Of a DNA stretch of 64,000 nucleotides, positions 13,515 through 48,497 are shown in pieces; the stretch's first letter is position 1, and every line of letters starts with the position of its first letter. The notes beneath the pieces were generated by a model that made no database searches, was not told the DNA's origin, and saw nothing but the letters and a program-made list of their open reading frames with translations. Source of the stretch: Eubacteriales bacterium (GTDB lineage: Bacteria > Bacillota > Clostridia > Oscillospirales > CAG-272); contig JBJDZG010000012.1 in the NCBI GenBank assembly GCA_051867875.1, positions 98 to 64,097 of the forward strand, read 5' to 3'. The translations under genes and the position numbers were made by a program.

Positions 13515-13520
13515 AGCGTT

Positions 13521-14321: not shown

Positions 14322-14379
14322 TTGATTATTTATCGCAGTTGTGATACAATGACTATATACTTACAAAGGGGGGAACGGA

Positions 14380-15411: not shown

Positions 15412-15474
15412 GAGGCGGGCTGCTTGACTTATAAAGGCTCGCCTCATAACTATATAGATTTGAGGTATAACGGT

Positions 15475-16911: not shown

Positions 16912-16933
16912 CGCCCGATTTTCATAAATTTAT

Positions 16934-16976
16934 CTTTGGAGCAGATTGCTTTTGCAACCTGCTCCAAAGCATTTTG
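16934..16976 (+). terminator. Hairpin after pepD (probable terminator)
   Basis: ctttggagcag / ctgctccaaag stem with a 14-nt loop, then cattttgg. Confidence 0.6.
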
Positions 16977-17118
16977 GCAAATATCCTTGCACCTTTGGAA
17001 ATTTTGGCGAAAAAAGTCAACAAAAAATTGCTGTAAAGATAAAAAAAGGGCTACACAAAAGGGATAATATATGCTATAATATAATATAATTATAAGTTTA
17101 AGCTTTTTCGAGGACTTT

Positions 17119-17994: not shown

Positions 17995-18031
17995 TTTTTG
18001 GGGAGAATTTTCAGAAAAGGAGGTAATTTGA

Positions 18032-21232: not shown

Positions 21233-21234
21233 CG

Positions 21235-23100
21235 GTGAAATTAATGAATACAAAAAACAGTTCCGTTCTTAAATCTGTAGAAAAGCCCGGCAGATACTGC
21301 GGGGGCGAATACGGACAGGTAATTAAGGGCAAAAAAGATATTAAGGCGAGATGGGCGTTCTGCTTCCCCGACACCTATGAGATAGGAATGTCAAATCTCG
21401 GCGTAAGAATACTTTACGGTGCTCTCAACCGTGAGGACGATATCTGGTGCGAGCGCGTTTACGCGCCCTGGACCGATATGCAACAGAAGATGAGAGAAAA
21501 CGGTATTCCCCTTACCGCTCACGAGAGCGGGGACAAGCTCACGGAATTTGATATCGTCGGTTTCACGCTTCAGTACGAGATGTGTTATACGACGGTGCTT
21601 CAGATGCTCTCTCTTGCGGGTATTCCCCTATACGCAAAGGACAGGGGGGACGAGTTCCCCATAGTCATAGGCGGCGGACCTTGCGCGTACAACGCAGAGC
21701 CCGTGGTGGATTTCTTCGATTGCTTCTCAATAGGTGAGGGCGAGGATATGCTCGTCGAGTTTACAAAGCTCTACATTGAAATGAAGGAGAGTGGCACTTA
21801 TACAAAGCGCGAATTTCTCCACAGAGCGGCGCGCGAGGTCGGCGGTCTTTACGTTCCGTCGTTCTACGACGTTTCCTACAACGATGACGGCACTGTCAAA
21901 GAATACAAGCCGATTTTCGACGACATTCCCACGAAGATTACGAAAAGAATTATGACCGATATGGACAAGTCGTACTTCCCCGACAAGGTCGTAATGCCCT
22001 ATATTGAAACGGTGCACGACAGAATAATGCTTGAGGTTTACCGTGGCTGTATACGCGGCTGCCGTTTCTGTCAGGCGGGAATGGTTTATCGCCCCGTCCG
22101 CGAAAAGACTCCCGGCGTGCTCAACGACCAGGCAAAATGCCTCTTTGAAGCGACGGGCTACGACGAGATTTCGCTTTCGTCGCTCTCTATAAGCGACTAT
22201 TCAAGGCTCGACGAGCTGACGGACAGTTTGCTCGAATGGACGGACGACAATATGGTTAACCTTTCGCTTCCGTCCTTGCGCGTTGACAGCTTTACCAAGG
22301 AGCTTATGGACAAGATAGTTACCGTCAGAACGGGCTCTCTTACGTTTGCTCCCGAGGCGGGAAGTCAGAGACTGCGCGACGTTATTAACAAAAACGTCTG
22401 CCGTGAGGACCTTTTGCGCGCGGTGAATGTTGCCTTTGATGCGGGCAAGACGAGCGTTAAGCTCTACTTTATGATGGGACTTCCAACGGAAACTTACGAG
22501 GACCTTGAAGGCATCGCAACTCTTGCAAAGGACGTTGTCGAGGCTTACTATGCCAACCCCAACAGAATGAAGGGCAAGGCACCGAGCGTTACGGTCAGCG
22601 TTTCCTGCTTTATTCCGAAGCCCTTCACACCCTTCCAGTGGGAAGCTCAGGACTCTATGGAAGCCTTCGTCGAAAAGCAAAAGTTTCTTGAAAGTAAGAT
22701 AACGGACCGCAAGATAAGATTCGTTCATCACGACGCAAGAGTTTCGCATATCGAAGCGGTACTTGCGCGCGGCGACCGCCGTCTTGCTCCCGCTATGGCG
22801 CTTGCGTGCGAGCGCGGATTCTGCTTTGACGCGTGGGACGAATTTTTCCGATACGACGAGTGGATAAAGGTGTTCAACGACTGCGGTATCGACTACAATT
22901 TCTATTCAAACAGAGAATGGGGCGAGGACGAGGTGCTTCCTTGGGACATTATCGACTGCGGTGTTACAAAGTCGTTCCTTATGCGTGAGCGCCACAACGC
23001 CTACATGGAAAAGACCACGCCTTCCTGCCGTGAAAAGTGCAGCGGCTGCGGTGTAAATAAACTCGGAGGTGAGAGAACATGGTGTCCGAAAAAGGATTAA
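21235..23100 (+). CDS. B12-binding-domain radical SAM protein (TIGR03960-like)
   Basis: 621 aa with a CxxxCxxC cluster (YRGCIRGCRFCQAG). It is followed by its usual DUF2344-like partner. Confidence 0.85.
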   Translation: MKLMNTKNSSVLKSVEKPGRYCGGEYGQVIKGKKDIKARWAFCFPDTYEIGMSNLGVRILYGALNREDDIWCERVYAPWTDMQQKMRENGIPLTAHESGDKLTEFDIVGFTLQYEMCYTTVLQMLSLAGIPLYAKDRGDEFPIVIGGGPCAYNAEPVVDFFDCFSIGEGEDMLVEFTKLYIEMKESGTYTKREFLHRAAREVGGLYVPSFYDVSYNDDGTVKEYKPIFDDIPTKITKRIMTDMDKSYFPDKVVMPYIETVHDRIMLEVYRGCIRGCRFCQAGMVYRPVREKTPGVLNDQAKCLFEATGYDEISLSSLSISDYSRLDELTDSLLEWTDDNMVNLSLPSLRVDSFTKELMDKIVTVRTGSLTFAPEAGSQRLRDVINKNVCREDLLRAVNVAFDAGKTSVKLYFMMGLPTETYEDLEGIATLAKDVVEAYYANPNRMKGKAPSVTVSVSCFIPKPFTPFQWEAQDSMEAFVEKQKFLESKITDRKIRFVHHDARVSHIEAVLARGDRRLAPAMALACERGFCFDAWDEFFRYDEWIKVFNDCGIDYNFYSNREWGEDEVLPWDIIDCGVTKSFLMRERHNAYMEKTTPSCREKCSGCGVNKLGGERTWCPKKD

Positions 23101-23837
23101 AGCCTTATTCAAAAAACGACTATCCGATGCTCGATACTCCGAAATTCATAAGATTCAAGTTCAGAAAGGTCGGCGATTTGCAGTACATATCCCATCTTGA
23201 CCTGCAAAAGACGATGGGCAGAGTCCTTATCCGTGCCAAAGCTCCGCTTTGGTACAGCAAGGGCTTTAACCCCCACCCGAAGCTCATTTTTGCGCTTCCG
23301 CTCTCCGTCGGTACGCAGAGCGAGTGCGAGTATCTCGATATAAGAGTCGAGCGCGACGTACCGCCCGAGGTGATGCTCGCGCATATAAACGCCGAGGTAA
23401 CGGACGAGCTTTGCTTCCTTGAAGCGTACTATCCCGAAGCTCCCTTGGAGGACATTTATTTTGCGGAGTACGATTTTGAGATAATCAGCAAGAGCGCGTG
23501 CCCTGATTTGGCGGAGAAAATAGACGAATATCTGAACGCCGACGAGGTGCTTATTTCAAAGAAAGTCAAGAGTAAGGACAAAAAGATAAGTTACAAGGAC
23601 GTTGATATTGCGCCCTACGTAAAGCGTGCAGAGGTGCGCTTTGACGGCGGAAAAATCAAAATCAACGCCGTTCTTTCCGCATCCATAAACCAAACGCACC
23701 CGCATATAAATCCAGAATCTCTGATGAAAAGTATTCGTGAGCGTTTTTCCATCGTTCCCGACGGCGTTGCGGGCGAGGAATACAGCATAATGCGCCGACG
23801 CGTCTTTTTTGAAGACGGAGAGACGGAATTCAGATAG
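23079..23837 (+). CDS. radical-SAM-associated protein (TIGR03936 / DUF2344-like)
   Basis: FRKVGDLQYISHLDL...GFNPHPK signature. It overlaps the upstream radical SAM gene by 22 nt. The true start may be the internal Met near 23127. Confidence 0.8.
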   Translation: MVSEKGLKPYSKNDYPMLDTPKFIRFKFRKVGDLQYISHLDLQKTMGRVLIRAKAPLWYSKGFNPHPKLIFALPLSVGTQSECEYLDIRVERDVPPEVMLAHINAEVTDELCFLEAYYPEAPLEDIYFAEYDFEIISKSACPDLAEKIDEYLNADEVLISKKVKSKDKKISYKDVDIAPYVKRAEVRFDGGKIKINAVLSASINQTHPHINPESLMKSIRERFSIVPDGVAGEEYSIMRRRVFFEDGETEFR

Positions 23838-23846
23838 GAGCTCGGT

Positions 23847-24380
23847 ATGTATATCTGGGTTGGAATTGACGTTGAAAGAGAGCTCATAGAAGTAAGGCGG
23901 GCGCTGGACGCGACCTTTGAGAGCATGGAAATCTCAAACGCGAACTGCAAACTGCCGCTGCATATCTCTCTTAAAATCTCGTTTGAGATACCGAACGATA
24001 TTCTTGATTCGGTGATTTCGGATATTGAAGAAATTTATAACCGCACCGAGCCTTTCGATATTGAAATTTCGGGTATCGAAAAATACGAAAATATCGTGTG
24101 GATAAGAATGAGGGAAAACCGTGCTCTCAAGAGCCTTTCCTACAAGCTCAATATGATGCTTAAGGACAGGTACGGCATAGGGCTGCACGAGTACGACCTC
24201 GATTATAAATTTCACACTACGCTCTTTATGGACGGCGATGGCGAAAAGATTGACAAAGCGTTCTCGCACGTGTCAAATCTTACCCTGCCCAAAGCTCTGC
24301 GCGCCGATAAATTTATCATTGGAAAGAGCGAGAGCGGACGCGACGGAACGTATTTTGTTTATAAAGAGATACAAAAATAA
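23847..24380 (+). CDS. 2H phosphoesterase superfamily protein (LigT-like)
   Basis: 177 aa with two H-x-[ST] motifs (LHISLK and FHTTLF) at the spacing typical of 2H enzymes. Confidence 0.65.
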   Translation: MYIWVGIDVERELIEVRRALDATFESMEISNANCKLPLHISLKISFEIPNDILDSVISDIEEIYNRTEPFDIEISGIEKYENIVWIRMRENRALKSLSYKLNMMLKDRYGIGLHEYDLDYKFHTTLFMDGDGEKIDKAFSHVSNLTLPKALRADKFIIGKSESGRDGTYFVYKEIQK

Positions 24381-24383
24381 AAA

Positions 24384-24409
24384 ATCGAAGCCAAGGCTTC
24401 GATTTTTTG
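24384..24409. terminator. Bidirectional terminator between convergent genes
   Basis: atcgaagcc / ggcttcgat stem flanked by an A-run and a T-run. Confidence 0.8.
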
Positions 24410-25762
24410 TTATATACTTGCTTCTGCCTCTCTGCGCTTCAGCTCCTTTGAGAAAAGGAGCATAATTACGACGGAGAGCAGCGTTGTAAGAACCATTGTG
24501 ATGGGCGAGTTGAGCCAAAGCCCGAAAAGACCGAGTGAGCGGAGCGCGAAGATGAGCGCCATGGGGAACACAAACGCGCTTCCGACGGATATGAACGTTG
24601 CGTAAAGCGGTTTTTCGACGGCGGTCATATAGCTTTGAGTCGCAAACGAGAACCAGAATATAAGCCGCGAGAAGGCGTAGATTTTGAGTGCTTCAACCGC
24701 CTCCGAAAGGAAGGCTGTGTCGGTGCTTTTCGTAAAGAGGGACACGAGAAGCTCGGGGATAGTCCACATCATCACAAAGGACACGACGGACACGACGGCG
24801 CCGGCAGCGAAGGTGCATTTTGAGAGAGATTTGACTCTGTCGTAGCGTTTAGCACCCCAGTTATAGCCAATCGCGGGCTGGAGCGAGTCGCAGATTCCGT
24901 AGATGAGGGGCTGAATTATCTCTCCGACGTACATCAAAATGCCGTAAATGGCAACCGCGGGGTCCCCTCCCATTGATATGAGTGCCTTATTCATAGCGAT
25001 TGAGGTAACTCTGCCCGAAATATTGTTAAGAAATATGGGCATACCGCATTTTATAATTTGTTTCGCCGTTTTCGCCGAGAAATGCGGCCTTGTGAGCTTT
25101 AATTGAAATTTGCCGATGGCAAACGGAACGAATGCAGTAAGCGCACCGCCCGTAAGGCACAGACAGCTTGCAAGTGCCGCTCCCCAGATATCAAATCGGA
25201 ACGCGAAAAGAAAGATAAATTCCGTTACGGCAGTCGCTATCGACATCACGACGTTAATCCACATACTGAATTTGACCTTGCCCGAAATTCTCAGGTAGTT
25301 GTCAAAAGCGAAAACCGAAGTAATCACGGGCGAGAACACCGCGTAGACGCGAATGTACTGCACCGCGAGGCGCGACGCCTCCTCACTCGCTCCCATAAAT
25401 CCGATGATATATGGCGAGCCGAAGAAGAGAAGAAGCCCCATAAACGAGCCCGCGCCCACTATCATCAGAAGAGCGCAGGTGAAAATATTGTTTGCTTCCT
25501 TTTCCTCACGGCGACCGAGGCTTATCGAAATGGGCACGGCGGAGCCGACTGCCACGAGGTCCGAGAGAGCGAAATTTATGATTACGAAAGGAAACGCAAG
25601 ATTTATTGCGGCAAACGCGGTATCGCCGAGTATCTGCCCGACGAAAATACCGTCGAAAAGTCCGTACAGAGCCGACGCGAGCATACTTATCGCGCCCGGA
25701 ATGGCGGCGATGAAAAACAGCTTCAGCGGTCGGGTTTTAAGAAACAGTTCTTTAGAGTCCAT
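24410..25762 (-). CDS. MATE family efflux transporter
   Basis: 450 aa with about 12 predicted TM helices and a typical MATE N-terminus (PLKLFFIAAIPGAISMLASALYGLFDGIFVGQ). Confidence 0.85.
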   Translation of the reverse strand: MDSKELFLKTRPLKLFFIAAIPGAISMLASALYGLFDGIFVGQILGDTAFAAINLAFPFVIINFALSDLVAVGSAVPISISLGRREEKEANNIFTCALLMIVGAGSFMGLLLFFGSPYIIGFMGASEEASRLAVQYIRVYAVFSPVITSVFAFDNYLRISGKVKFSMWINVVMSIATAVTEFIFLFAFRFDIWGAALASCLCLTGGALTAFVPFAIGKFQLKLTRPHFSAKTAKQIIKCGMPIFLNNISGRVTSIAMNKALISMGGDPAVAIYGILMYVGEIIQPLIYGICDSLQPAIGYNWGAKRYDRVKSLSKCTFAAGAVVSVVSFVMMWTIPELLVSLFTKSTDTAFLSEAVEALKIYAFSRLIFWFSFATQSYMTAVEKPLYATFISVGSAFVFPMALIFALRSLGLFGLWLNSPITMVLTTLLSVVIMLLFSKELKRREAEASI

Positions 25763-25831
25763 ATACCTTCCTTGAAAAATTAGTTCCTATTGATTATACA
25801 ATAATTTTTCGCAAAAGTCAATGGAATATAA

Positions 25832-26788
25832 TCAAAAGACACTTTCTATTATTTTCTTGCATCCTCTCGGCGAATAGCGCCAGATTTCTATCCTGTTTTG
25901 CGTTTCGGGGTTAATATAGTATTTTAACGGCGTTATCGGCGCGGGCGAGAGATTTGAGTCTATCAGCACGAGCTTGATTTTCATTCTGTCGGGCAGAATG
26001 CTTTTGATATATACGGAAATGGTGTCGCCGGTGCGGAGATTCTGCAAGGTAGGATTGTCGTCGCGGAGCTCCGCAAGCCCCGCAAGATTTGGGGCAAGCT
26101 CGACGAAAACTCCGTAGCTCTCAACGCTTCTTACTATTCCGTTGACCGTCTGACCGACGGAAAACTCGCGCGCGTTTTCTTCCCACGTGCCGAGAAGCTC
26201 TTTCAAGGTTATGTATATGCGTCCGGTTTGCACGTCATTGGATTTTACCACGACGGAGAGGTTTTGTCTGTTTGCAAGTCTGTCCGACGGGTGAGATATG
26301 CGCGAGACAGAAATGCAGTCAATGGACAAGAGGGAAACGATACCGCAGCCTATGTCGGCGAACGCGCCGAAGGTGTCAAGATGAGTGACAGTTGCGGGAA
26401 TGATATCGCCCGGCAAAAGCGACGAGAGATAGTAATTTTTGCACTCTATCTGCGCGCTCTTGCGCGAGAGAACAGCTCTGTATGTATCTCCCACCGCCTC
26501 AAGCCCTATGACCTTGAAGCACACGGGCTTGCCTACACGCGTGATTATGGCTATATCCTTGACGGGCTCGCCGGACGCAGAGAGAACGCACTCCTCTTTC
26601 GGAATGATTCCCTTTATGCCGAAGAGGTCAACGTGCAAATTCAGCTCCTCGTCGCATTTGGTTGCCATAGCTTCGAGTATTTTTCCCTCGTTCATGGCGC
26701 GTCCAAGTCCTGAAATACTTGATATATATGAAGTGTTTTCCTGTGTGTAGATATGTGAGCCCTCGGGCAAATACTCTGTTTCAAACAT
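25832..26788 (-). CDS. S1 RNA-binding domain protein (multi-S1)
   Basis: 318 aa with repeated S1-like segments (GDIIPATVTHLDTFGAFADIG; GQTVNGIVRSVESYGVFVELA). Confidence 0.75.
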   Translation of the reverse strand: MFETEYLPEGSHIYTQENTSYISSISGLGRAMNEGKILEAMATKCDEELNLHVDLFGIKGIIPKEECVLSASGEPVKDIAIITRVGKPVCFKVIGLEAVGDTYRAVLSRKSAQIECKNYYLSSLLPGDIIPATVTHLDTFGAFADIGCGIVSLLSIDCISVSRISHPSDRLANRQNLSVVVKSNDVQTGRIYITLKELLGTWEENAREFSVGQTVNGIVRSVESYGVFVELAPNLAGLAELRDDNPTLQNLRTGDTISVYIKSILPDRMKIKLVLIDSNLSPAPITPLKYYINPETQNRIEIWRYSPRGCKKIIESVF

Positions 26789-26962
26789 TTTTCATTCTCC
26801 TTTTAATCCTTTACGCCTAATTTATTTGAGCGCTCAAAAAAATATTCCGAAAAATTTTGAATTGTAAAACGAGAAAAAACGAGCAAATTGGGTAAAAATG
26901 CGAGAAAACGAGAGCTTGCGCCAAGATAAATTGAAATTGCAAAAAAAGTTTTCAAAAAAGTA

Positions 26963-26991
26963 TTGACAATGAGCGAAAATGATGATATAAT
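26963..26991 (+). promoter_or_regulatory. sigma-A promoter of rplM-rpsI
   Basis: TTGACA, 17-nt spacer, TATAAT. Confidence 0.7.
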
Positions 26992-27057
26992 GTGCAAGGT
27001 CAAAAAAGAAAAAGCTTGTAAATCAAGCTAATTACAAAAATTTTGGAGGAATTATTA

Positions 27058-27486
27058 ATGTCTACTTTTTTTGCAAAAGCAGAAACCATTGAAAGAAAAT
27101 GGTATGTTATAGACGCTGCTAATAAGCCCCTCGGAAGAACTGCAGTTGCTGCAGCCAACATTCTTCGCGGCAAGCACCGTCCCGAATTTACACCCAACGC
27201 CGACTGCGGTGAATTCGTAATTATCATCAACGCTGACAAGGCTGTTCTTACAGGCAAAAAGCTTGAACAGAAACACTACTATCATCACTCCGGTTACATC
27301 GGCGGTATGAAGTCGGTTCAGTACAAAACACTTATGGCTACAAAGCCCGAACTTGCTATGACTCTCGCAGTTAAGGGTATGCTTCCTCACAACTCCCTCG
27401 GAGCAAAGGCAGCTACACGCCTTAAAGTCTACGCAGGTGCAAACCACAAGCACGAGGCTCAGCAGCCCGTGGCTTACGAAGTTTAA
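27058..27486 (+). CDS. rplM: 50S ribosomal protein L13
   Basis: [20 protein letters not shown]...GKHRPEFTP. The ATG at 27058 sits 7 nt after GGAGGA. Confidence 0.95.
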
Positions 27487-27506
27487 TGAAAGGTAGGACG
27501 ACAGAT

Positions 27507-27908
27507 ATGTATACAAGCTCAAAGCCCTATTTTTACGGAACAGGTAGAAGAAAGAAATCCGTTGCACGCGTTCGCATAGTTCCCGGAACAGGCGTTATCA
27601 CAATCAACGGCAAGGACATCGACCAGTACTTCGGTCTTGAAACACTTAAGCTCATCGTTAACCAGCCTTTCGGCGTTACAGGTACTGAAGGCAAGTTTGA
27701 TATCATCGCACTTGTAAACGGCGGCGGTATCTCCGGTCAGGCAGGTGCTATCCGTCACGGTCTTGCAAGAGCTCTCGTTGCAGCTGACGAGGCTAATAAG
27801 CCCGCTCTTAAGGCAGCAGGTCTTCTCACTCGTGACCCTCGTATGAAGGAAAGAAAGAAATACGGACTCAAGGGCGCTCGCCGTGCTCCTCAGTTCTCAA
27901 AGAGATAA
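27507..27908 (+). CDS. rpsI: 30S ribosomal protein S9
   Basis: [15 protein letters not shown] near the N-terminus and a C-terminal [10 protein letters not shown]. Confidence 0.95.
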
Positions 27909-27936
27909 TTATTTCTTATTGGATATTATCAACAAA

Positions 27937-27971
27937 CCCCGAAACTTCAAGGTTTTCGGGGTTTTCTTTTT
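27937..27971 (+). terminator. Rho-independent terminator after rpsI
   Basis: ccccgaaac / gttttcgggg stem followed by ttttcttttt. Confidence 0.8.
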
Positions 27972-27984
27972 GCCAATTTTTCGA

Positions 27985-28028
27985 TTTTGGTGCAAATGTG
28001 GTGCAAATCGACTTCAAAACCTACTTTT
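27985..28028 (+). repeat. Junction repeat copy A (doubled GGTGCAAAT unit plus TCGACTTCAAAAC)
   Basis: ttttggtgcaaatgtggtgcaaatcgacttcaaaacctactttt. It is near-identical to copy B at 41604 and shares the doubled unit with copy C at 42858. Confidence 0.8.
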
Positions 28029-28055
28029 TAGACGCAAAAATCATATAAAAACTGT

Positions 28056-28088
28056 CAAGCGAGTTCAGTGAACTCGCTTGATTTTTTG
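28056..28088 (+). terminator. Orphan terminator-like hairpin
   Basis: caagcgagttc / gaactcgcttg stem followed by aTTTTTTg. No intact upstream gene is present. Confidence 0.6.
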
Positions 28089-29626
28089 TTGAACTCTTTT
28101 ATCCTTCGTGGGTGTTTGTGCCGTGATGCGTTTCGCTATTAAGAATGACGCAAGCGGTTGTTTTGAACGTTCTCATCAAACTTTCTTTGAGGAGTTGATT
28201 TTGACTTTCTTGATAGCTGATGTAAAAGACTCCCGTTTCGTCTGACTTTTGCTCGCAGACGGCGCAGCTTATGATATGGGAAGAAGCGGAGTAGCATTTT
28301 CCTATGTTATGAATAGCGATTCCACTTCTTATCTTACCGAAAATCAGAGGGAGCTTGCATACGAGGCGGTAAAGGCGGCGTCTGATACTTCTGCAAAAGA
28401 GCAGGATTCTAAGATTAAGAAATCAGCTAACGGAAAGACCGGGCGTAAGATAGGAACAGTTAAGGGCGAGGGAGTAACTATCTCGGACCTTAAAAAAACC
28501 TTTAATGATACGCAGAATAAAGCTTATAAAACACTCACTACTATTGCAGAAGTTACAGGCATTGACATTGTACTGTATAAATCTGAGGCAAACGCTGACG
28601 GTGTATTTCAAGGTGCTCAGGGTAAATTTGATTGGTCTGACGATAAACTATATATAGACATTAACGCAGGTCTTAAAGATATAAACAGCGTTGATGACCT
28701 TGCAAAATACGCTATGCTTCGCACTTTTTCCCACGAATTTACACATTTTATTGAAAAATACAATTCAATATGGTATAATGAGTTTAGAAAAGTGGTGTTT
28801 GAAGAACTCACAACACGAGGAGAAAACGTTCACGATTTGATTGAGGAAAAGCAGGCAATGACAGAGGGAATGACCTATGAGCAGGCAAGCCGTGAAGTAG
28901 TTGCAGAAGCTATGACCGATATTCTTCCCGACTCACATTTTGTCGAAACTCTTGCAAATGAGCATAAGAATGTATTTGATAAGCTTCTTGAAAAGCTCAA
29001 GGAATTCCTTGCTGACATAAAGGCTTACTTCAATTCTATCGGGCACAACCGTTCAAAAGAGGCAAATGCACTCAAGGAGCAGGTTGGAGAAGCTGCGCAT
29101 TATGTGGATAACATTGTGAAGCTCTTTGACAAGGTCGCAGTAGAGGCTGTGGAAAACTATCAAAAGACAGTTGCTATTGATGAAACTAAAAATAATCCTG
29201 CAAAGATTACAAGTACAGAGTCAATAAATGCTGACAAAGATTCACAAAATGACATTAAAACTTCAAAAACCGAAAAATCACTCTATGATAAATACAGTGA
29301 TATTAAGAAAGAATACCCGAATAATATCGTGCTTTATCGTGTTGGAGATTTCTTTGAGGTCCTTGGTGATGATGCGAAAGCTGTTTCTAAATGGGCAGAC
29401 TTGACATTGACAAGCAGAAACGACCCCAACGCAGGTCGTGTTGATATGGTCGGCTTCCCATACCATAAACTTGAAAGCTTTATGGACAAAATCAGAAAGC
29501 ATCAGGACGTTACTCTTGTTCAAGAGGAAAATGGAGAAACAAAGGTTTACCCTATGGCTTCATTGGAAACTAAGAACACCGCAAAGACAGCGGAAATAAC
29601 AAATAATACTAACGGAGGTATTACAA

Positions 29627-29812
29627 ATGCAGAACGAGAAGAACAGCAAGCACATTCCACGAGCGTTGACACAGGAAGAAATTCAGGCGTTGAAAGTTCA
29701 TCGGGAAGAACACAAAAAGAAAATGGAAACCGACCCCGAGTACAAAAAACAATGGGAGAAGAAAACGGAGATTTTCAGGAAAACGACTCTGTACAACGAC
29801 TGCATAGACTAA
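29627..29812 (+). CDS. Nested out-of-frame small ORF (61 aa) within the first low-complexity linker of the polyvalent frame
   Basis: GGAGG (29614-29618) lies 8 nt before the ATG. The helical K/E-rich sequence is MQNEKNSKHIPRALTQEEIQALKVHREEHKKKMETDPEYKKQWEKK. Coding status is unproven. Confidence 0.3.
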   Translation: MQNEKNSKHIPRALTQEEIQALKVHREEHKKKMETDPEYKKQWEKKTEIFRKTTLYNDCID

Positions 29813-30412
29813 AAAATGACTATGCTCGGGTTTTAGATACCAATAATTATATAACTCCTGAACAAAACTCTGACTTGCATAAGGCTCAAAGCGAGTTAAC
29901 AAACGAATATGGTATTGAAACTCATATTGTTAAGAAGTCAGCTTGGAAGTTTGAAAAATCTAAAGCTGTAACATCGTCCGAGGGAAAGGTTTATATCGCC
30001 GAAGATATAGGGTATTATGACCTTAGAACTACGCCAACTCACGAGGGAACACACGCTATGAAGCGACTCGGCTTCAGTCCTTATTTAGAGTTTATCGGAC
30101 GTACGCCTGATGCGTTGAATGTAGCGTCAAAAGAATATCTTGACCTTATGGAAGCTATTGAAGAACATACAGGTATTGATGCTTTGGATATGAACGAAAA
30201 AGAGCGTGTTGATGTCTATGATGAATTGAACGCTACTATTTACGGATTCCACAAGGGCGGAATTTTTGACGACACCAAGTTTGAATGGAGTTGGATGAAG
30301 GAGGCTTTTTCCAGCTTTGATACCTATATTAATGAGCTTTCAGCAATACACGAGCAGTTTAAGGCAGAGCGAACAGGTAAAAAGGAAACAACCACAGAGG
30401 AGGTAAAACAAA

Positions 30413-30670
30413 ATGGCAAAAATGCTGATAACCGAGGCACAGTACAACAGTCTGACACCGATAGGCAGGGAGATCCACAAGTATTGGAAGGACTTCAAGC
30501 CGAAAATGTACAAGGAGATGTACAAAGAGGGGACGCTGTGGGAGACTCTGTCGAGCGAGGACAAGAGGTTGGACGAGATGATGTGTCAGATGGTAGCAGA
30601 ACAGGGACTCGCAGAAGATCAGGCGAGGGAGATAATCAAAGCGGAGATTTACGACGAGATGATGTATTAA
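30413..30670 (+). CDS. Nested out-of-frame small ORF (85 aa), TnpV-like pattern
   Basis: GAGGAGGT (30397-30404) lies 8 nt before the ATG. LTPIGREIHKYWKDFKPKMYKEMYKEGTLWETL...QGLAEDQAREIIKAEIY resembles, from memory, small TnpV-type proteins of clostridial mobile elements. Coding status is unproven. Confidence 0.4.
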   Translation: MAKMLITEAQYNSLTPIGREIHKYWKDFKPKMYKEMYKEGTLWETLSSEDKRLDEMMCQMVAEQGLAEDQAREIIKAEIYDEMMY

Positions 30671-30987
30671 CTCCCGAAGCTGCCGAAAAACTTCACGAGG
30701 AAGTAACAGAGCAGATTGAACAGCAATCTACTGAACTTCCCAAAGGCAAAAACTTTGTAATTGGCGACTCTCTTGACCTTCCCAACGGAGAAAAGTCAAG
30801 ATATAAGGCTAACGTTGAAGCAATAAGACTTGTAAAGAAACTTGAAGCTGAGGGCAGATATGGAACATTAGAATACTATTATCATCGAATACTTCATAAG
30901 AAAAGGCAACTACAACATTTTTGAAATAAACGAAGCTCTGTTTGCTTTTGATCAGAGCTTGTTAGGAGCATAAAGGAGTTTAGATAA

Positions 30988-31485
30988 ATGAAAGCGATTG
31001 TTTATACCTCTAAATGCGGACACACCGCAGAATATGCCGGGATCCTCGGTAACCTGACGGGACTGCCGGTGTATTCGCTGAAAGACGCCGGGAAACAACT
31101 CGAAAACGGCGTATCGGTAATATACCTCGGCTGGTTAATGGCAAACAGGGTTCAAGGGCTAAAAAAGGCGTCAAAGAAGTTTAAGGTTTCCGCCGTTTGT
31201 GCGGTAGGTCTTTGTGATACGGGCGCACTGCTATCCGAAGTGCAAAAAACCAATGCATTACCCGAGAGTTTTCCTCTTTTCACTATGCAGGGCGGTATGG
31301 ACAAAACGAAGCTTCACGGCCCGTATAAGCTGATGATCAATATGCTCACAAAAGGTCTTGCGTCACAAAAGGAACGCACCGAAACCGATGAGCGAATGCT
31401 GTATTTATTAACGCACAGTGAAAATTATGTAAGTGAGAAAAATACAGCTGCTTTTATGGAGTGGTATAATCTAAATAAAAACTGA
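30988..31485 (+). CDS. flavodoxin-like domain protein
   Basis: 165 aa. The N-terminal MKAIVYTSKCGHTAEYA is typical of short flavodoxin-fold proteins. An AAAGGAG RBS is present. Confidence 0.65.
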   Translation: MKAIVYTSKCGHTAEYAGILGNLTGLPVYSLKDAGKQLENGVSVIYLGWLMANRVQGLKKASKKFKVSAVCAVGLCDTGALLSEVQKTNALPESFPLFTMQGGMDKTKLHGPYKLMINMLTKGLASQKERTETDERMLYLLTHSENYVSEKNTAAFMEWYNLNKN

Positions 31486-31499
31486 TCAGGAGAAATGAT

Positions 31500-31850
31500 A
31501 TGTTAAGATTTATATGCTACCCCAAATGCACCACTTGTCAAAAGGCAAAGAAGTGGCTCGACGATAGTGGAGTCGAATACGAGCTTAGAGATATTAAGCT
31601 TGACAATCCTACGCCGGATGAGTTGACGGAATGGCACAAGAAAAGCAGCTTGCCACTCAAAAAGTTTTTCAACACAAGCGGTCTGCTTTATAAATCTCTC
31701 GACCTTAAAAATAAGTTGCCCTCAATGAGTGAGGATGAAATGCTGAAGCTTCTTGCAAGTGACGGTATGCTCGTAAAGCGTCCGCTGCTCGTTGGAGATG
31801 ACTTTGTTCTTGTTGGGTTTAAGGAAACAGAATGGAGAGAAAAAATATAG
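31500..31850 (+). CDS. ArsC/Spx/MgsR family protein (YffB-like)
   Basis: 116 aa with CTTCQKAKKWL near the N-terminus and a LVKRPLL motif. Confidence 0.8.
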   Translation: MLRFICYPKCTTCQKAKKWLDDSGVEYELRDIKLDNPTPDELTEWHKKSSLPLKKFFNTSGLLYKSLDLKNKLPSMSEDEMLKLLASDGMLVKRPLLVGDDFVLVGFKETEWREKI

Positions 31851-32323
31851 GAGAAACAAAAAGATACATGGAAGATTTGATATCAAAATTGACGGTAAAG
31901 GATAACAAATACGCCTGCGCCTTGGCTGACAAAATCATTTCGGAAAGTAAAGAGTCGGATAAATGGTATGAGTATTTGGATGACTTTGCGGCTTTGCTTA
32001 ATCACCCGAACTCTTTGGTGAGAAATAGGGCGGTCTATATTCTTGCGGCAAACGTGCAGTGGGACTGTGATAACAAATTTGACCTTATTTTGCCTGAATT
32101 TTTAACGCATATAACAGACGAAAAACCGATCACCGCAAGGCAATGTATTAAAGCCCTTGCACAAGTCGGCACGGCAAAACCGCAGTATGTTCCGAAAATA
32201 CTTTCCTGTCTTGAAGGTGCCGATTTATTCAAATATAACGACACGATGCGCCCGTTGATCGAAAAGGATATTGAGGAAACGAAACAGATATTAACAAATA
32301 AGTCCCGTATCGATTGCTTATAA
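31832..32323 (+). CDS. hypothetical alpha-helical (HEAT-like repeat) protein
   Basis: 163 aa with a helical-repeat character (LVRNRAVYILA, ITARQCIKALAQVG). The start is uncertain; the alternative is the ATG at 31868. Confidence 0.45.
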   Translation: MERKNIGETKRYMEDLISKLTVKDNKYACALADKIISESKESDKWYEYLDDFAALLNHPNSLVRNRAVYILAANVQWDCDNKFDLILPEFLTHITDEKPITARQCIKALAQVGTAKPQYVPKILSCLEGADLFKYNDTMRPLIEKDIEETKQILTNKSRIDCL

Positions 32324-32410
32324 ACTGATTTTTTGTCGCCTGCCATGCGACCAAACCTCTCTTTTATTGATGTACAATACAGACATCAAATGAAAGAGAG
32401 GTTTTCTATT

Positions 32411-32509
32411 ATGAAAAACAACACGACGGAACTCGTATTTATTTTGGACAGAAGGGGATCGATGGCAGGGTTTGAGAACGATACCATCGGCGGCTTTAAC
32501 GCAATGATG
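32411..32509 (+). pseudogene. 5' fragment (33 codons) of a vWA-domain protein gene
   Basis: MKNNTTELVFILDRRGSMAGFENDTIGGFNAMM contains the vWA MIDAS start (DxSxS-like DRRGS). Sense is lost at 32,509, where the antisense GH20 homology begins. Confidence 0.6.
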
Positions 32510-33024
32510 CCGAGCATGTGCGCCTCGTCCATACCGATATGGAGCGTTCTCGTTCTGAAATTTTTTCGGAGCGATTTGAATATATTTTCAATGAGCTCGT
32601 ATGTGCGCTCGTCGTCCGCCAAAAGGATATCGTCGCAGTCCCCTTTGACCTTTCCCCAGCGCAAATAGGTGTCGAGGTGCGCCAGCGTCTGAATACAGGG
32701 TATAATTTCGATGCCGACATCAGCACCGAAGCGGCCAATTTCCTGCATTTCTTGTTAACTGTATCTTCCGCGGAGATAGCCGAAGTAAGGCTCTCTCTCA
32801 ATATAATAGGTGTCTTCCATATAAAGAAATGCGCAGTTGTATCCCACTTTATTTATGACGGTGAGATGCTTTTTTATTGTGGGAACGTTCATCACGGCGT
32901 TGCGCGACATATCTATCATAATTCCAAACTTCTCAAATTTTTTCATATAAAACTCCCTTCTCAATTTTGCCCGAGAGCGTATTGAAGCATAAAAACGGAA
33001 TACTCCGTGAATTTCCCCTATCAC
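32510..33024 (-). pseudogene. GH20 beta-N-acetylhexosaminidase remnant (N-terminal about 170 codons, frameshifted and 3'-truncated)
   Basis: Two frames. 33024..32755 gives MKKFEKFGIMIDMSRNAVMNV...YFGYLRGRYS. 32748..32510 gives QEIGRFGADVGIEIIPCIQTLAHL...LHIGMDEAHMLG. Homology stops at the vWA junction. Confidence 0.7.
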
Positions 33025-33103
33025 ATATATTTTAATCTGTCAAGCGAAAAGCGACGGTTTTTTGCCCCGTAAAAACATTATTAATAATGTTTTTGTTTAA
33101 CGA

Positions 33104-33132
33104 TTGACAACCTCATTTTAATTGGTTATAAT
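33104..33132 (+). promoter_or_regulatory. sigma-A promoter of the GH31 gene
   Basis: TTGACA, 17-nt spacer, TATAAT. Confidence 0.65.
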
Positions 33133-33190
33133 AGCCTTACATAGCGAAGAAAATCGTTGTTCAGAATCAAAAAGGAAAGGACAAAACGGT

Positions 33191-35713
33191 ATGAAACAAT
33201 TTGTTTTGGAAAATGTTCGCATTCAGCTTTTCGGCGGCGGAATAATCCGCCTTGAAAAAGCCGAGGATGGCAATTTTTGCGACGGGGACACCTTTTTTGT
33301 TCCCGAGAGAAAGAATTTGGAGAAAAAGAGTGATATCGATTCTTCGCTTGACGGAAACGATATCATTTTCGGAGATTATATACTGAATGTCCCTGATTCT
33401 GCTAAGGGGCTTTCGGGCGTTACTCTTTCATATAAAGGACAAGAGGTATACCGCTATGAAAGAATAAAAAACAGCGGTGAGCTTCCTTTGCCCATTGACA
33501 CGCCCGAGGTGTTTGCGCTTGCAGATTCGCCCCGCATTATTGCACCCGAAAAGGGGTATACGGTTCATCAGGACGACTGTACATATACGGTGGATGAAGA
33601 TGCACAGGACGTATATCTGCTTTTGTGCCTTGGCGACCACAAAAAGCTCCGTGAGCTTTACGTCGAGCTTACGGGCAGACCTGAGCTTGTGCGCCTTTCC
33701 GCCCTCGGAAGCTGGAACAGCAAGTATTTCCCCTACACCGAGGAAGAGGCGAAAGAGGTTATTGAGGAATACGAAAATCACGACGTACCTCTTGACGTAA
33801 TGGTAATCGACACAGACTGGCGTACCTCGGAAAACGGCTGGGGCTACGATATCAACGAAAAGCTTTTTCCCGATATGGAGAGATTTTTCCGCTTTGCTCA
33901 CGAGCACGGTGTGGAGATAATGTTCAACGACCACCCAGAACCCCAAAACGGTGCCCACGTCTTCGAAAAAGAGGAAATTTCGTACAGAGAAGAAAATCTC
34001 ACAAGGCTTCTTTCAATGGGACTTGATATCTGGTGGTACGACCGAAACTGGAAAACCCACCTAATCACTCCAAGCGACAATATTCGCTGGGAAACTCTCG
34101 GTCTTTATCTCTTTTGGGAAGTAACCGAAAACCATTACAAAAAACTCTCGGGCGACGATAAAAAATACCGCCGTCCCGTAATAATGGGAAATGTCAATAA
34201 TATCATTAACGGTACGTACCAAGGAATTTCCGACAGCGCTTCGCACCGCTATTCTGTTCAGTGGACGGGCGACATTCTGAGCGATATCGCTTCGCTCGGT
34301 CAAGAGGTTGCGAATATTGTCAGAACGGGCGACAATTGTCTCGCGTATGCCCACCCCGACTGCGGCGGACACGTCGGAAATCCCGACAGAGAACTCTTCG
34401 TCCGCTGGATGCAGATGGGCGCGCTCTGTCCCGTATTAAGACCTCACTGCTCCTGCTCTGTCGAGCGCTTCCGCGAGCCGTGGCTATATGACAGTGAAGT
34501 TTTGAATATCGTCAGAGAATATATTAAAATGAGATACAGACTGCTCCCTGCAATATATGCAAGAGCTTTTGAAAACCACCGCACGGGCGCTCCGATTTTT
34601 GCTTCGCTCGGATATAACTATCCAAAGGATGAGCGCGCGTCAAGGTGCAATAATCAGTATATGCTCGGCAGAGATGTACTTATAGCGCCTATTACAGGGG
34701 AGTTTGAAGTGGAATTTCCGAAGGAAGGCTATGCTTCTCCCGTCGAGGTCGATTTTTACGGCGGACACGAATGCAAGGGCGAAAAGCTGGCAAGCGCAAC
34801 CTGGCAGAGCCTTAATATGAGACTTAATTACGTTTCTCCCGCCGAGGGCGTGCCCATGTTCGACTTTTCCGCAAGAATACGCACAACGCTGAAGGTTGAA
34901 AAAGAAATCGAACTCATTCTTTCCTGCGATGACGGCTCAACGGTTTGGCTTGACGGCAAAAGGGTGCTTGAGGACAAGACCTTCCACGGAGCGCAGAGTT
35001 TTACCCTCGGTATACTTGGACCTGATGCTCCTCACACACTTGAAATTGAGTATTTCCAGGGGAGCGGCGAAGCGGCTTGTATTCTTATGAGCAAAGAAAT
35101 CGGGCAAAATGAGCAGAAAAACGTATATTTCCCCGATGGACAGTGGCTTGACCTCTTTGACGGAAGCATTTACTCCGCCGACATCAGCAGGACGACCGAT
35201 TGTGCATTAAGAGAGATGCCGTTGTTCGTCCGTTTGGGCTCACTCATACCCGTCGCCGAGAATGCAAATAACACGAAGAAACAGTCTTGGCAGAGCCTTA
35301 CCTATCACTATTATCCCGATAAGAAAGCGGGCGACGAGGGCTTCGTTTACGAGGACGACAGAGAAACCACGGCATATAAATACGGTGAGCACCGTATATC
35401 AAGGTACAGTGCGTTCTTTGACGGAGAAAGGGGCGCTTATACCGTTCATTTCAGTAAATCCGAGGGTGCCTTTGACGGATCCGACGCATTTGAAAGCCGA
35501 AATATCGCCCTTGCAATTCACAAACACGCAGGTATGGCAGATATCCGCCGTATCACGCTTAACGGCGAGGATATTTCTTTTGAAATCAGAAATAAAAACG
35601 GCGAAGCGATGCCCTTTGAGCTTGAGGGCATATCTCCCGATTCCGACGTAGCGCTCGTACGATTCTGCGCGGGGCTTGACAGGGAATACACGGTTTGTAT
35701 TTTCGCCGAGTAA
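33191..35713 (+). CDS. glycoside hydrolase family 31-like enzyme with an inserted PA14-like domain
   Basis: Start MKQFVLENV after AAGGAAAGGA. GH31-like segments are DVMVIDTDWR and YSVQWTGDI. The PA14-like segment is LSCDDGSTVWLDGKRVLEDK...LEIEYFQGSGEA. Confidence 0.68.
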   Translation: MKQFVLENVRIQLFGGGIIRLEKAEDGNFCDGDTFFVPERKNLEKKSDIDSSLDGNDIIFGDYILNVPDSAKGLSGVTLSYKGQEVYRYERIKNSGELPLPIDTPEVFALADSPRIIAPEKGYTVHQDDCTYTVDEDAQDVYLLLCLGDHKKLRELYVELTGRPELVRLSALGSWNSKYFPYTEEEAKEVIEEYENHDVPLDVMVIDTDWRTSENGWGYDINEKLFPDMERFFRFAHEHGVEIMFNDHPEPQNGAHVFEKEEISYREENLTRLLSMGLDIWWYDRNWKTHLITPSDNIRWETLGLYLFWEVTENHYKKLSGDDKKYRRPVIMGNVNNIINGTYQGISDSASHRYSVQWTGDILSDIASLGQEVANIVRTGDNCLAYAHPDCGGHVGNPDRELFVRWMQMGALCPVLRPHCSCSVERFREPWLYDSEVLNIVREYIKMRYRLLPAIYARAFENHRTGAPIFASLGYNYPKDERASRCNNQYMLGRDVLIAPITGEFEVEFPKEGYASPVEVDFYGGHECKGEKLASATWQSLNMRLNYVSPAEGVPMFDFSARIRTTLKVEKEIELILSCDDGSTVWLDGKRVLEDKTFHGAQSFTLGILGPDAPHTLEIEYFQGSGEAACILMSKEIGQNEQKNVYFPDGQWLDLFDGSIYSADISRTTDCALREMPLFVRLGSLIPVAENANNTKKQSWQSLTYHYYPDKKAGDEGFVYEDDRETTAYKYGEHRISRYSAFFDGERGAYTVHFSKSEGAFDGSDAFESRNIALAIHKHAGMADIRRITLNGEDISFEIRNKNGEAMPFELEGISPDSDVALVRFCAGLDREYTVCIFAE

Positions 35714-35741
35714 TTACATATTGCTTAATTAAACATAATAT

Positions 35742-35785
35742 AGCGGTTGCTTGTGCCGATGGCACTTGGCAACCGCTTGTTTTTA
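35742..35785 (+). terminator. Rho-independent terminator after the GH31 gene
   Basis: gcggttgc...gcaaccgc outer stem with an inner gtgcc/ggcac stem, followed by ttgtttttattt. Confidence 0.75.
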
Positions 35786-35879
35786 TTTCAAAAAATGTAT
35801 TTTTCTGTCGACAAATATAGGCTATTATACAAGGAAATAATTACATTAAAGTTAATGCTGGTTTTTTTGAAATTAATGC

Positions 35880-35908
35880 TTGACACGGCAAATTACCATT
35901 GGTAAAAT
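35880..35908 (+). promoter_or_regulatory. sigma-A promoter of the lipoprotein gene
   Basis: TTGACA, 17-nt spacer, TAAAAT with an extended -10 TG. Confidence 0.6.
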
Positions 35909-35973
35909 TAATATAGAATAGGCGATAAAGCAGGCACCTATTTGGTAAAAATGAACAAAAAGGAGAGCGTATT

Positions 35974-37002
35974 ATGAGCAAAACAACCAAATTAGTTTTG
36001 ACGTTGGTTACCGTCGCGTTGCTTTTGACAACCGTTTGCGGTCTAAGCTCCTGTATTTTTGACAGAGCTCCGCAGGCTTGTTCGCTTGTGATTGACGATG
36101 CCATCGAAAACGGAAAAGTAACGGCTGACAAGGAAGCCTATGTTGAAGGCGAGACTGTCATCCTGACAATCATTCGTAATGCCGGTTATGAACTTGTTTC
36201 AATCAAGATAAACGGCGAAGAAAAAATCTCCGAGGTGTCTTCCGACGGAAGAAAGCTTGAATTTGTGATTACAGAGGATACAAGCGTTTCCGCGGAATTC
36301 AGAAAGATAGCGACTTACAAGTTAGACATATCAGTAATCGGCGGAGGTAACGTTGTATCCGACAAGTCGGTATATCTTACGGGCAATACGGCAGTCCTTA
36401 CCATCGCGCCCAGCACGTACTACCGTCTTAAATCCATCAAGGTTGACGGAGTAGAGAAGATAGACGACGTTGTCGAAAGGGACGGAAGATTGACTCTTTC
36501 ATTTGTAGTTGAATCCAACGCAGTTATCGTTGCCGAGTTTGAGGAGCTTCCCCCCGAGGACCTTTTGGTAACGGTTAATCCGAGAGTTAACCTTAATAAT
36601 ATGGTACTTACATTGACCGATGAAGAGGGCAATAAGCAATATGTAACTGTTGTTGACGGTAAGTTTACCGTCCCTGCGGCTGACAAGGGAACTACTTACA
36701 CGGTAACGGGCGAGAGCAGAGGCTTTGAGATTACTCTCGGCACCTTATTGGCAGACGGAACAGAAGTTGAATTCGACCCTGCTTCCTTCTTAACCAATAA
36801 CTCCGGTACACTTGATATAGCAAATGGCTCTTACGTTGTAAATCCCGAATATCACAAGGGTGTAAATCTTACTCCCATAGCTCCCATTGAGGGTGATTCC
36901 TGGTTTGTAGCAAGGATTCAGATTTCTCCCGAGGATATGGAAGCATTGCTTAAATCTTCCGACGAGATAGTTGCGGGTATCTCCCTTAAATCCGACGGAT
37001 AG
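35974..37002 (+). CDS. surface lipoprotein with Ig-like B-repeat domains, ending at an in-frame TAG
   Basis: Signal peptide plus lipobox (LLLTTVCGLSSC). Repeated modules of about 70 aa (GKVTADKEAYVEGETVILT...YELVSIKINGEEK). A GGAGAG RBS is present. Confidence 0.75.
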   Translation: MSKTTKLVLTLVTVALLLTTVCGLSSCIFDRAPQACSLVIDDAIENGKVTADKEAYVEGETVILTIIRNAGYELVSIKINGEEKISEVSSDGRKLEFVITEDTSVSAEFRKIATYKLDISVIGGGNVVSDKSVYLTGNTAVLTIAPSTYYRLKSIKVDGVEKIDDVVERDGRLTLSFVVESNAVIVAEFEELPPEDLLVTVNPRVNLNNMVLTLTDEEGNKQYVTVVDGKFTVPAADKGTTYTVTGESRGFEITLGTLLADGTEVEFDPASFLTNNSGTLDIANGSYVVNPEYHKGVNLTPIAPIEGDSWFVARIQISPEDMEALLKSSDEIVAGISLKSDG

Positions 37003-44263: not shown

Positions 44264-44388
44264 GGAGCATAACCACCGGTTTTACCGGTGGCTATGCTTT
44301 TTATAAAAAAATAGTTTGCGTAGCGCGATATGACAAATTTTGTGCGTTAGTGATGATAAAATATACAAAAAGGAAGTGAGGAGAAGAA

Positions 44389-45184: not shown

Positions 45185-45206
45185 TCTCAAAGGAGATTTT
45201 CAGTAA

Positions 45207-45953: not shown

Positions 45954-45982
45954 AAAGGGGAAACCGTAAGGTTTCCCCTTTT
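45952..45982. terminator. Bidirectional terminator between sigF and the GH2 gene
   Basis: ggggaaacc / ggtttcccc stem with a gtaa loop, flanked by an A-run and a T-run. Confidence 0.85.
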
Positions 45983-45990
45983 AAGCTATA

Positions 45991-48461: not shown

Positions 48462-48497
48462 AAAATGTGCTAAATTCATAAAAATTTGGAGGATATT

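Follow-up and report, generated by a model that had tools for sequence, protein, structure and literature searches.

We analysed a 64,000-nucleotide stretch of DNA (hereafter the window) from a Eubacteriales bacterium of the GTDB lineage CAG-272 (contig JBJDZG010000012.1), in which an 85-codon open reading frame (ORF) with a Shine–Dalgarno (SD) sequence of its own is nested within a long ORF on the same strand. The long ORF is the remnant of a giant gene for a polyvalent protein, and the small ORF resembles genes for TnpV, a small protein of Bacillota mobile elements. The start codon of the small ORF is the ATG at 30413-30415, which places it in the +1 frame of the long ORF, as (30413-28249) mod 3 = 1. 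The locus comprises the following features:

28249..30924, + strand: long ORF of 891 codons, the remnant of the giant polyvalent-protein gene (ORF listing).
29287..29523, + strand: MutS-I DNA-binding domain, a hallmark polyvalent module (PF01624, E 3.6e-16; amino acids (aa) 347-425).
30397..30404, + strand: SD sequence GAGGAGGT of the nested gene, with an 8-nt spacer to the ATG (direct reading).
30412..30669, + strand: long-frame reading of the overlap, codons 722-807 of the long ORF (translation).
30413..30670, + strand: nested TnpV-like gene, 85 codons plus the stop codon TAA at 30668-30670 (ORF listing).
30671..30866, + strand: start of the N-terminal region of the methyltransferase-helicase module (TPEAAEKLHEEV...NFVIGDSLDLPNGEK...EAEGRY), from the alignment of long-frame homologues; cut at 30866.

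The long-frame translation of the overlap (NGKNADNRGTVQQSDTDRQGD...SGDLRRDDVL) is rich in G, D, R, E and S. Across homologues, the overlap contains 12% hydrophobic residues and 80% G/D/E/R/S/T/Q/N/P/K, with 28–32% hydrophobic residues in its flanks, and this part of the giant protein is probably a disordered linker between modules. A preliminary description of the locus, made from the letters alone, had reported the SD sequence 8 nt before the ATG, the out-of-frame relation of the 85-codon ORF to the long one, the open state of both frames over the overlap and the low-complexity linker in the long frame; all four were recovered on recomputation, and its translations of both frames were identical to ours. 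Its term 'polyvalent-protein frame' holds in that the long ORF is homologous to the giant gene, but the window contains an internal 2.6-kb fragment and not the full gene. Alternative-frame ORFs of 40–93 aa are frequent in the same stretch of the ORF listing, so that a length of 85 codons alone is no proof of a gene and the case must rest on relatives.

Full-length relatives of the long ORF carry MutS_I, Eco57I/N6_Mtase, SNF2, ResIII and Helicase_C domains in one giant ORF, a multi-domain architecture that characterizes the polyvalent proteins of conjugative elements and phages, in which the role of the MutS-I domain has also been described (Iyer et al., 2017, PMC5512222). What these relatives share with the published polyvalent proteins is the combination, in one polypeptide, of MutS-I, an N6-methyltransferase and an SNF2 helicase and, in some of them, an ArdC-N-like N-terminus. 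The full-length homologues therefore qualify as polyvalent proteins in their own right, and the window ORF is a fragment that keeps their MutS_I-containing middle. The nested gene is placed precisely at the junction of the N-terminal modules with the conserved beginning of the methyltransferase-helicase module.

We examined loci fetched around homologues of the small ORF, comprising 13 loci from a set with one genome per species, 22 metagenome loci and 19 IMG/VR contigs, together with the contigs encoding two database proteins. Wherever the host gene was full-length, the small ORF was present with ATG and stop codon in the +1 frame of an open giant ORF. These loci yielded 38 distinct nested sequences, the identity among which reaches down to ~36–40%, and their giant ORFs run to >3,700 codons within the DNA fetched. 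The preliminary description had held that homologues without the nested ORF would speak against a gene; the opposite was found, in that ORF, SD and ATG are kept in the full-length homologous loci. Both frames are also open over the overlap in further distant and canonical TnpV types. As a separate observation, the giant gene on the 73.9-kb contig L001 is divided between two ORFs, 5923-12366 and 11900-19891, that overlap over 11900-12366, which reflects either a real frameshift or an assembly error; on the same contig the gene caller left 10259-12349 uncalled and called opposite-strand genes inside the giant ORF.

Selection in the two frames was compared by Nei–Gojobori proportions of non-synonymous (pN) and synonymous (pS) differences over 703 pairs (666 for the flank). 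The small frame gave a pN of 0.277 and a pS of 0.524, with pN < pS in 702 of the 703 pairs, whereas the long frame, read over the same nucleotides, gave a pN of 0.336 and a pS of 0.267, with pN < pS in just 55 pairs. In the next 150 codons of the long frame, which served as the flank, the values were 0.185 and 0.721. Mean pairwise differences at codon positions 1, 2 and 3 were 0.298, 0.236 and 0.404 in the small frame, a normal coding pattern, and 0.404, 0.303 and 0.249 in the long frame, where the pattern is reversed and the third position is the least variable. This pattern indicates that the small protein is under purifying selection at the amino-acid level. Because pN exceeds pS in the long frame, the linker is not selected for its amino-acid sequence and reads as a shadow of the small gene. 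Synonymous differences in the small frame were fewer than in the flank of the same pairs (pS 0.46–0.52 vs 0.69–0.72), which fits an extra constraint imposed by the second frame. The frame-specific comparison proposed in the preliminary description thus found protein-level selection in the small frame only, together with a small-frame pS below that of the flank. Two of the three options that it had left, a genuine overlapping gene and a linker that merely mirrors a small gene read out of frame, both agree with these values and are compatible with each other, and the combination of an orphan small ORF with a linker under purifying selection, which it had named as contrary evidence, is the reverse of what was observed.

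The constraint on the long frame is of a different kind. A stop codon arises in the long frame only where a small-frame codon ending in T is followed by a codon beginning with AA, AG or GA. None of the 787 small-frame codons preceding AA, AG or GA codons ends in T, compared with 128 of 1367 codons elsewhere in the small ORFs; in the giant ORFs, T-ending codons make up 26%. When synonymous codons were redrawn with host-gene usage, 4–11 long-frame stops appeared per ORF and the probability of none, P(0), was below 0.006 in 25 of 25 loci; for the window copy the same resampling gave 10.8 stops on average (P(0) < 1/5000). In four annotated stand-alone TnpV genes, the -1 frame, which corresponds to the host frame of nested copies, contains 3, 4, 4 and 14 stops, and the other alternative frame of TnpV-like ORFs contains 3–17 stops everywhere. 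The host frame is always the same one because ATG and NTR codons before a purine cannot be recoded in the other frame. Selection is hence detectable in both frames, at the protein level in the small one and as stop avoidance only in the long one. The long frame is selected solely for staying open, its hydrophilic composition being a result, and selection against long-frame stops implies that ribosomes read through.

The classical stand-alone TnpV genes that we checked (L139, L140, L142 and L143) have stops in the -1 frame. A fifth candidate control, from the Cohnella herbarum plasmid NZ_CP051681.1 (L141), was rejected as stand-alone, being itself nested in an ORF of >1,400 codons: its TnpV gene has no stops in the -1 frame, which runs open from position 2112 past 6332. 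Bacilli (Paenibacillaceae) thus have the arrangement as well. Across all cases the overlap measures 258–438 nt, and the hosts span numerous clostridial genera and, in Bacilli, at least one member.

It could be argued that only the small gene is real and that the 'giant ORF' is made up of at least two distinct genes, with frames open across tnpV by coincidence and with termini that lie near the overlap and depend on unrecognized signals. Gene callers do split the region in this way, in L002 and in the RefSeq record NZ_OY725736.1 (L138, record 429846-437510), where an open 2554-codon frame is annotated as two genes, a TnpV at locus coordinates 7022-7354 and an 'SNF2-related protein' beginning at codon 1033, leaving unannotated the ArdC-N-like start and the conserved N-terminal motif of the methyltransferase, ~3.1 kb of conserved coding sequence in all. 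The methyltransferase-helicase module can, moreover, begin near this point (L130, L133 and L083). However, no full-length locus has a stop in the long frame, and the codon bias, the resampling and the stops in stand-alone TnpV genes together show that openness is statistically forced. As selection for openness makes sense only if ribosomes read through, we regard separate genes as improbable, although an extra internal start for the downstream module could exist beside the giant gene.

The small protein belongs to a genuine family. Its single Pfam match is PF14198 (TnpV; E 7.4e-6, 26.3 bits), aligned over model positions 16-84 of 111, so that the 85-aa window protein lacks the C-terminal part. 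A large protein collection contains 35 homologues that are 53–88% identical; all but two, which have 120 and 123 aa, are 83–85 aa long. Hydrophobic or aromatic residues predominate at the conserved positions (L5, I6, L14, G18, H22, Y24, W25, M32, Y33, G40, L42, L53 and E73). A profile of the subfamily, searched against 1.84 billion representative proteins, retrieved 198 relatives. Of the 150 listed, almost all are small (~50–180 aa), the longer ones being a 248-aa TnpV-containing protein, three of 178–374 aa without a Pfam match and two repetitive proteins, and no giant protein with a TnpV-like domain in frame was found among those 150. PF14198 was matched by 21 of the 74 relatives tested (best E 6.7e-23) and no other family recurred; a precomputed match to PF14198 is present on P0002, P0008 and P0018, and a hidden Markov model (HMM) of canonical TnpV matches the window ORF at 2.9e-4. 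The window protein is thereby connected to bona fide TnpV by transitive and profile homology, and the HMM search that had been suggested for the 85-aa product does return homologues. By sequence, the small protein represents a short and divergent lineage within the TnpV superfamily. The resemblance to TnpV-type proteins suggested in the preliminary description accordingly stands at the superfamily level but not at Pfam's cut-off: the window protein is a homologue of TnpV and, marginally, no member of the family by Pfam's own rule.

An AlphaFold2 model built with the family alignment has five helices (predicted local distance difference test, pLDDT, 90.3; predicted template modelling score, pTM, 0.77), an all-helical fold that is presumably unlike that of lambda Xis. 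A role for TnpV in excision has only been postulated, from weak similarity to lambda Xis (PMC3158075). The model (m89212632f433, window 30413-30667) also aligned with Q8W6J4_2, piece 2 of a viral protein of >1,000 aa, at a probability of 0.99, a template modelling (TM) score of 0.67 and an E value of 0.17, and a similar helical fold may occur in frame within some large phage proteins. By tblastn, the 85-aa protein had no match in plasmid and phage collections, and a collection of 15 billion proteins contained no exact copy of the proteins from the window, L004, L005 or L010. Some short-type nested proteins carry an acidic/helical C-terminal tail that brings them to 120–145 aa and nearer to canonical TnpV (L015, L036, P0014 and P0021); in the tailed forms L015 (6001-6363) and L036 (4941-5378) the overlap with the giant frame extends to 360–438 nt and is still stop-free.

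The small ORF also survives where the giant gene does not. In a set of metagenome contigs (L027-L035 and L038), a ~0.5-kb piece consisting of the nested gene and ~220 nt lies between chromosomal genes, with DUF4153, aspartate kinase and aminotransferase genes as neighbours. L027-L035 form a second remnant set, independent of the window, in which the giant gene has been lost and several copies have acquired a stop in the long frame while the small ORF is intact; between L027 and L033 the small ORF shows changes at 13 of 53 synonymous and 6 of 181 non-synonymous sites. We considered L027-L035 as an ancestral stand-alone state and rejected this, as they are chromosomal remnants of the nested arrangement. 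The small gene in L027-L035 and L038 may be domesticated or independently useful.

These data bear on the converse proposal that only the giant protein is real and that the 85-codon ORF is an unexpressed by-product of linker composition, or a dead relic, with a fortuitous SD sequence. In its favour are the frequent alternative-frame ORFs of the region and the tendency of purine-rich linkers to stay open in other frames. Such a by-product would nonetheless have to show a gene-like substitution pattern that the long frame itself lacks, encode a member of a widespread small-protein family with a confident predicted fold, keep its SD and ATG amid flanks that cannot be aligned, and persist intact and under purifying selection after loss of the giant gene. 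We consider it very improbable.

The start signals were examined in the 38 distinct homologues. A match of at least 6 nt to AAGGAGGTGA at a spacing of 8–9 nt is found in 36 of the 38, while random positions in these giant ORFs show an equal SD match in 1.6% of cases. Apart from the SD sequence, the upstream flank cannot be aligned among homologues. A small-frame stop lies 6–21 nt before the ATG in 32 of the 38 sequences. No consensus RNA structure was found in the initiation region of the homologues, and that of the window is less structured than its shuffles (z = +1.0); a role for RNA structure in hiding or exposing the SD sequence was rejected on these two counts. The conservation of SD and ATG, a further check that had been proposed, was thus confirmed in the full-length loci. 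An SD sequence conserved at initiation spacing, the upstream stop and the lack of RNA structure together point to an independent, accessible start site and not to the anatomy of a frameshift.

Programmed +1 frameshifting near 30413, the third option of the preliminary description, would fuse an N-terminal polyvalent fragment to a TnpV-like C-terminus ending at the stop codon at 30668-30670, with an internal GGAGG as stimulator. The overlap of two frames on one strand and the SD-like element within a translated ORF are what such a site would show, as in +1 frameshifting of the prfB type, where an SD-like element likewise lies in a translated ORF just before the frame change, and in the window the sequence GGC AAA AAT G could let tRNA-Lys re-pair in the +1 frame. 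The small-frame stop 6–21 nt upstream of the ATG, however, leaves few codons for a shift. The A-run is not kept as a slippery site, many homologues reading TCG AAA ATG, and the 38 sequences show no slippery sequence with a stimulator, SD and ATG alone being conserved. The prfB +1 stimulator is ~3 nt away; here the SD lies at the 8–9 nt of initiation, the ATG is invariant, the target frame has an upstream stop, and there is neither a conserved slippery codon nor an in-frame stop. With no conserved RNA structure found and with relatives of the small protein that are free-standing, frameshifting has very little to recommend it, and this option did not hold up.

We assessed generality with a scan anchored on the conserved N-terminus of the methyltransferase (alignment A3), which covered 80 further loci, 39–98% identical. 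A TnpV-like ORF was present at E < 1e-3 in 48 of the 80, always in the +1 frame and never in frame 0 or +2. Very distant short forms lie directly before the methyltransferase module in L101, L117, L120, L123, L127 and L129, and canonical TnpV genes of 113–117 aa are nested ~290 codons after an ArdC-N-like N-terminus in L087, L090, L095-L098, L105, L134 and L135. The long-frame stretch under the canonical genes is also rich in G, D, R, E, S and T, and their products are widely named 'TnpV protein' in NCBI (WP_243104907.1; Clostridioides difficile, Streptococcus suis, Dorea). Carriers of the nested canonical proteins WP_243104907.1 or WP_229105187.1 include strains of C. difficile, S. suis and Monoglobus pectinilyticus. 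An assembly or sequencing artefact, in which an in-frame TnpV-like segment lies between two compensating frameshift errors, might be entertained given that most homologous loci come from metagenome assemblies, but the same frame relation with its own ATG, SD and stop recurs in >60 independent assemblies of different projects and in finished plasmid records, and neither the profile search nor the anchored loci contained an in-frame homologue at E < 1e-3, which makes this explanation negligible.

The proteins studied here are homologous to the TnpV of Tn4451/Tn4453 and to TnpV-annotated genes from integrative and conjugative elements (ICEs), integrative and mobilizable elements (IMEs) and plasmids, by the PF14198 match and transitive profile links. 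Like those genes, which lie on Bacillota mobile elements, the homologues described here are found in genes of conjugative elements; the window copy itself sits in a chromosomal remnant. They differ in that the window protein has 85 aa, compared with ~110–125 aa for classical TnpV, and is without the C-terminal segment, and in that the classical examples checked are stand-alone genes.

Taken together, we put at roughly 0.8 the probability that the 85-codon ORF is a genuine TnpV-superfamily gene lying wholly inside a giant polyvalent gene, on the same strand and in its +1 frame, as judged from comparative sequence analysis. Several observations weigh against this. The sequences compared are related, so that the counts are not independent events, and the pS values are raw p-distances at synonymous sites that are near saturation for distant pairs. 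The 26.3 bits of the window protein miss the Pfam gathering threshold for PF14198 (27 bits), and other members of the short subfamily score 17–23.5 bits or do not match. Foldseek searches with the model returned nothing significant from the PDB (best 2apl, E 0.8) or from BFVD (best Q8W6J4_2, E 0.17). None of the loci examined showed a pre-fusion intermediate. In the window itself, a strong intrinsic terminator after rpsI (28054-28082, a 13-bp stem followed by a T-run) lies upstream of the remnant, consensus promoter matches for the window copy were not above chance, and this copy, being a fragment behind a strong terminator, may be silent.

The host is a giant polyvalent gene of Clostridia conjugative elements, encoding, in this order, N-terminal modules of DNA-binding or peptidase type, MutS-I among them, a linker, an N6-adenine methyltransferase and an SNF2 helicase. 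Ribosomes in the giant frame would cross the overlap and make a hydrophilic, probably disordered linker between modules, whereas others would start at the conserved, unstructured internal SD–ATG and release a free, small helical protein; on this account both products are translated. The output of TnpV would be tied to transcription of the giant gene and the pair would be inseparable. As to origin, an older stand-alone gene of the tnpV type may have been swallowed by fusion of flanking frames across its -1 frame, the only frame in which stops can be avoided by choosing among synonymous codons. Such a fusion over an older gene is suggested because the small family is old, widespread and free-standing, because the linker is lineage-specific and disordered, and because the sole recodable frame is the one used; from the distribution of the family, this overprinting history is probable. 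In L103, a shorter methyltransferase ORF and a TnpV-like ORF overlap at the 5' end of the former, which is only suggestive of a pre-fusion intermediate.

The window itself holds a relic of the arrangement. Its homology to full-length giant genes is confined to 28259-30866 (blastn against L004, L005 and L001), and the remnant corresponds by tblastn to aa 805-1538 of the open frame of L004 and aa 886-1730 of that of L005. The giant gene of the relatives runs over >3,400 codons in the DNA fetched, Eco57I/N6_Mtase, SNF2 and Helicase_C following the equivalent of 30671..30866, and tblastn found no other pieces of it in the 64-kb window. The last 19 codons of the long ORF and its stop are unrelated sequence. 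Neither the small ORF nor the 891-codon frame is interrupted, but their expression is doubtful. A promoter-like site with 11 of 12 matches and a TG lies inside the remnant ORF at 28751-28779.

The remnant lies downstream of rplM-rpsI, at the left edge of a genomic island:

27911..43958, no strand assigned: ~16-kb strain-specific island downstream of rpsI (blastn against L144).

L144, a related genome that is 95% identical in the flanks, is syntenic only over 21054-27910 and 43959-48823 and has ~1.1 kb in place of the island. Besides the giant-gene remnant, the island carries genes for an ArsC/Spx-like protein, a HEAT-repeat protein, a GH31 protein with PA14, an InlB-B-repeat protein, a SpaA-like protein (925 aa), a Fic protein and a radical-SAM protein, as well as a DUF3990 gene with a helix-turn-helix (HTH) gene; no integrase was seen among the genes of 27911-43958.

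Three independent truncated giant genes break within a few tens of nucleotides of one another, at 30866 in the window, at ~2106-2113 in L007 and at ~5459 in L031, which is 166–220 nt downstream of the stop codon of the nested gene. This cluster may mark a hot spot for deletion or insertion; a common recombination site was rejected, as the breaks of the window, L007 and the L031 clade are close but not identical. In S. suis, IMEs carrying 'TnpV' are reported to be inserted site-specifically in the snf2 gene of ICEs, with an 11-bp repeat (PMC9815147). This repeat was not found near the window break, and the 'TnpV' of the S. suis IME cargoes may be the resident nested gene.

The closest known analogue of the nested pair is comS in srfAB of Bacillus subtilis, likewise a small gene fully enclosed by a giant multi-module gene, sharing its strand but not its frame and having a ribosome-binding site of its own. 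comS is co-transcribed with srfAB, which ties its expression to that of the host gene; it encodes 46 aa, has a narrow lineage distribution and overlaps a catalytic domain of the nonribosomal peptide synthetase (NRPS) that is itself constrained. Here, unlike in comS, the nested gene belongs to an old and widespread family, the host frame is an unconstrained linker, and the arrangement is kept across many genera, down to ~36–40% identity. The srfAB/comS locus is the subject of PMC12915044. The Rz/Rz1 spanins of phage lambda and genes E and K of phiX174 resemble our case in that a +1 gene is embedded in a gene of a mobile element, with both frames open and one of them rich in residues typical of disorder. 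In these phage pairs the embedded gene is the evolutionary novelty, whereas here it is probably the older partner and the host linker the novelty, in a host gene of >3,000 codons. Embedded spanins and overprinted phage genes have been reviewed (PMC8227390).

We found no prior description of an overlap or nesting of TnpV in the literature searched. The survey of polyvalent proteins (PMC5512222) contains no occurrence of TnpV, frameshifts or nested genes, and a module encoded in the second reading frame of a polyvalent gene lies outside the published picture. Annotation pipelines routinely exclude long nested overlaps on the same strand (PMC5810103); at least one RefSeq record preserves its TnpV call by dropping or truncating ~1,000 codons of the giant gene, no annotation exists for the short subfamily, and maps of elements that draw 'tnpV' and 'snf2' as separate neighbours may be misdrawn.

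In bacteria, long, fully nested same-strand overlaps seldom come with solid comparative support, and this one has a clean codon-level signature, with one frame selected for its protein and the other only for openness. It offers a natural system for how a giant ORF tolerates an internal start site and for how a disordered linker arises by overprinting of an existing gene, the reverse of the usual direction, and the fixed pairing of TnpV with polyvalent proteins is a new functional lead for TnpV. We tentatively propose, as a possibility that we would not yet back at even odds, that TnpV is a regular hidden module of polyvalent genes, needed as a free protein and encoded in the second frame after an ArdC-N-type header or before the methyltransferase-helicase, where the giant protein reads a disordered spacer that might also be a processing site. 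In that case, a substantial share of the 'TnpV' genes on Bacillota elements would be nested and their host ORFs mis-annotated, and the overlap would be among the most deeply conserved long same-strand overlaps in bacteria, made by fusion of a host frame across an older gene. TnpV would then work together with the polyvalent protein, helping for instance to establish or protect transferred DNA, and not as a factor of transposition or excision.

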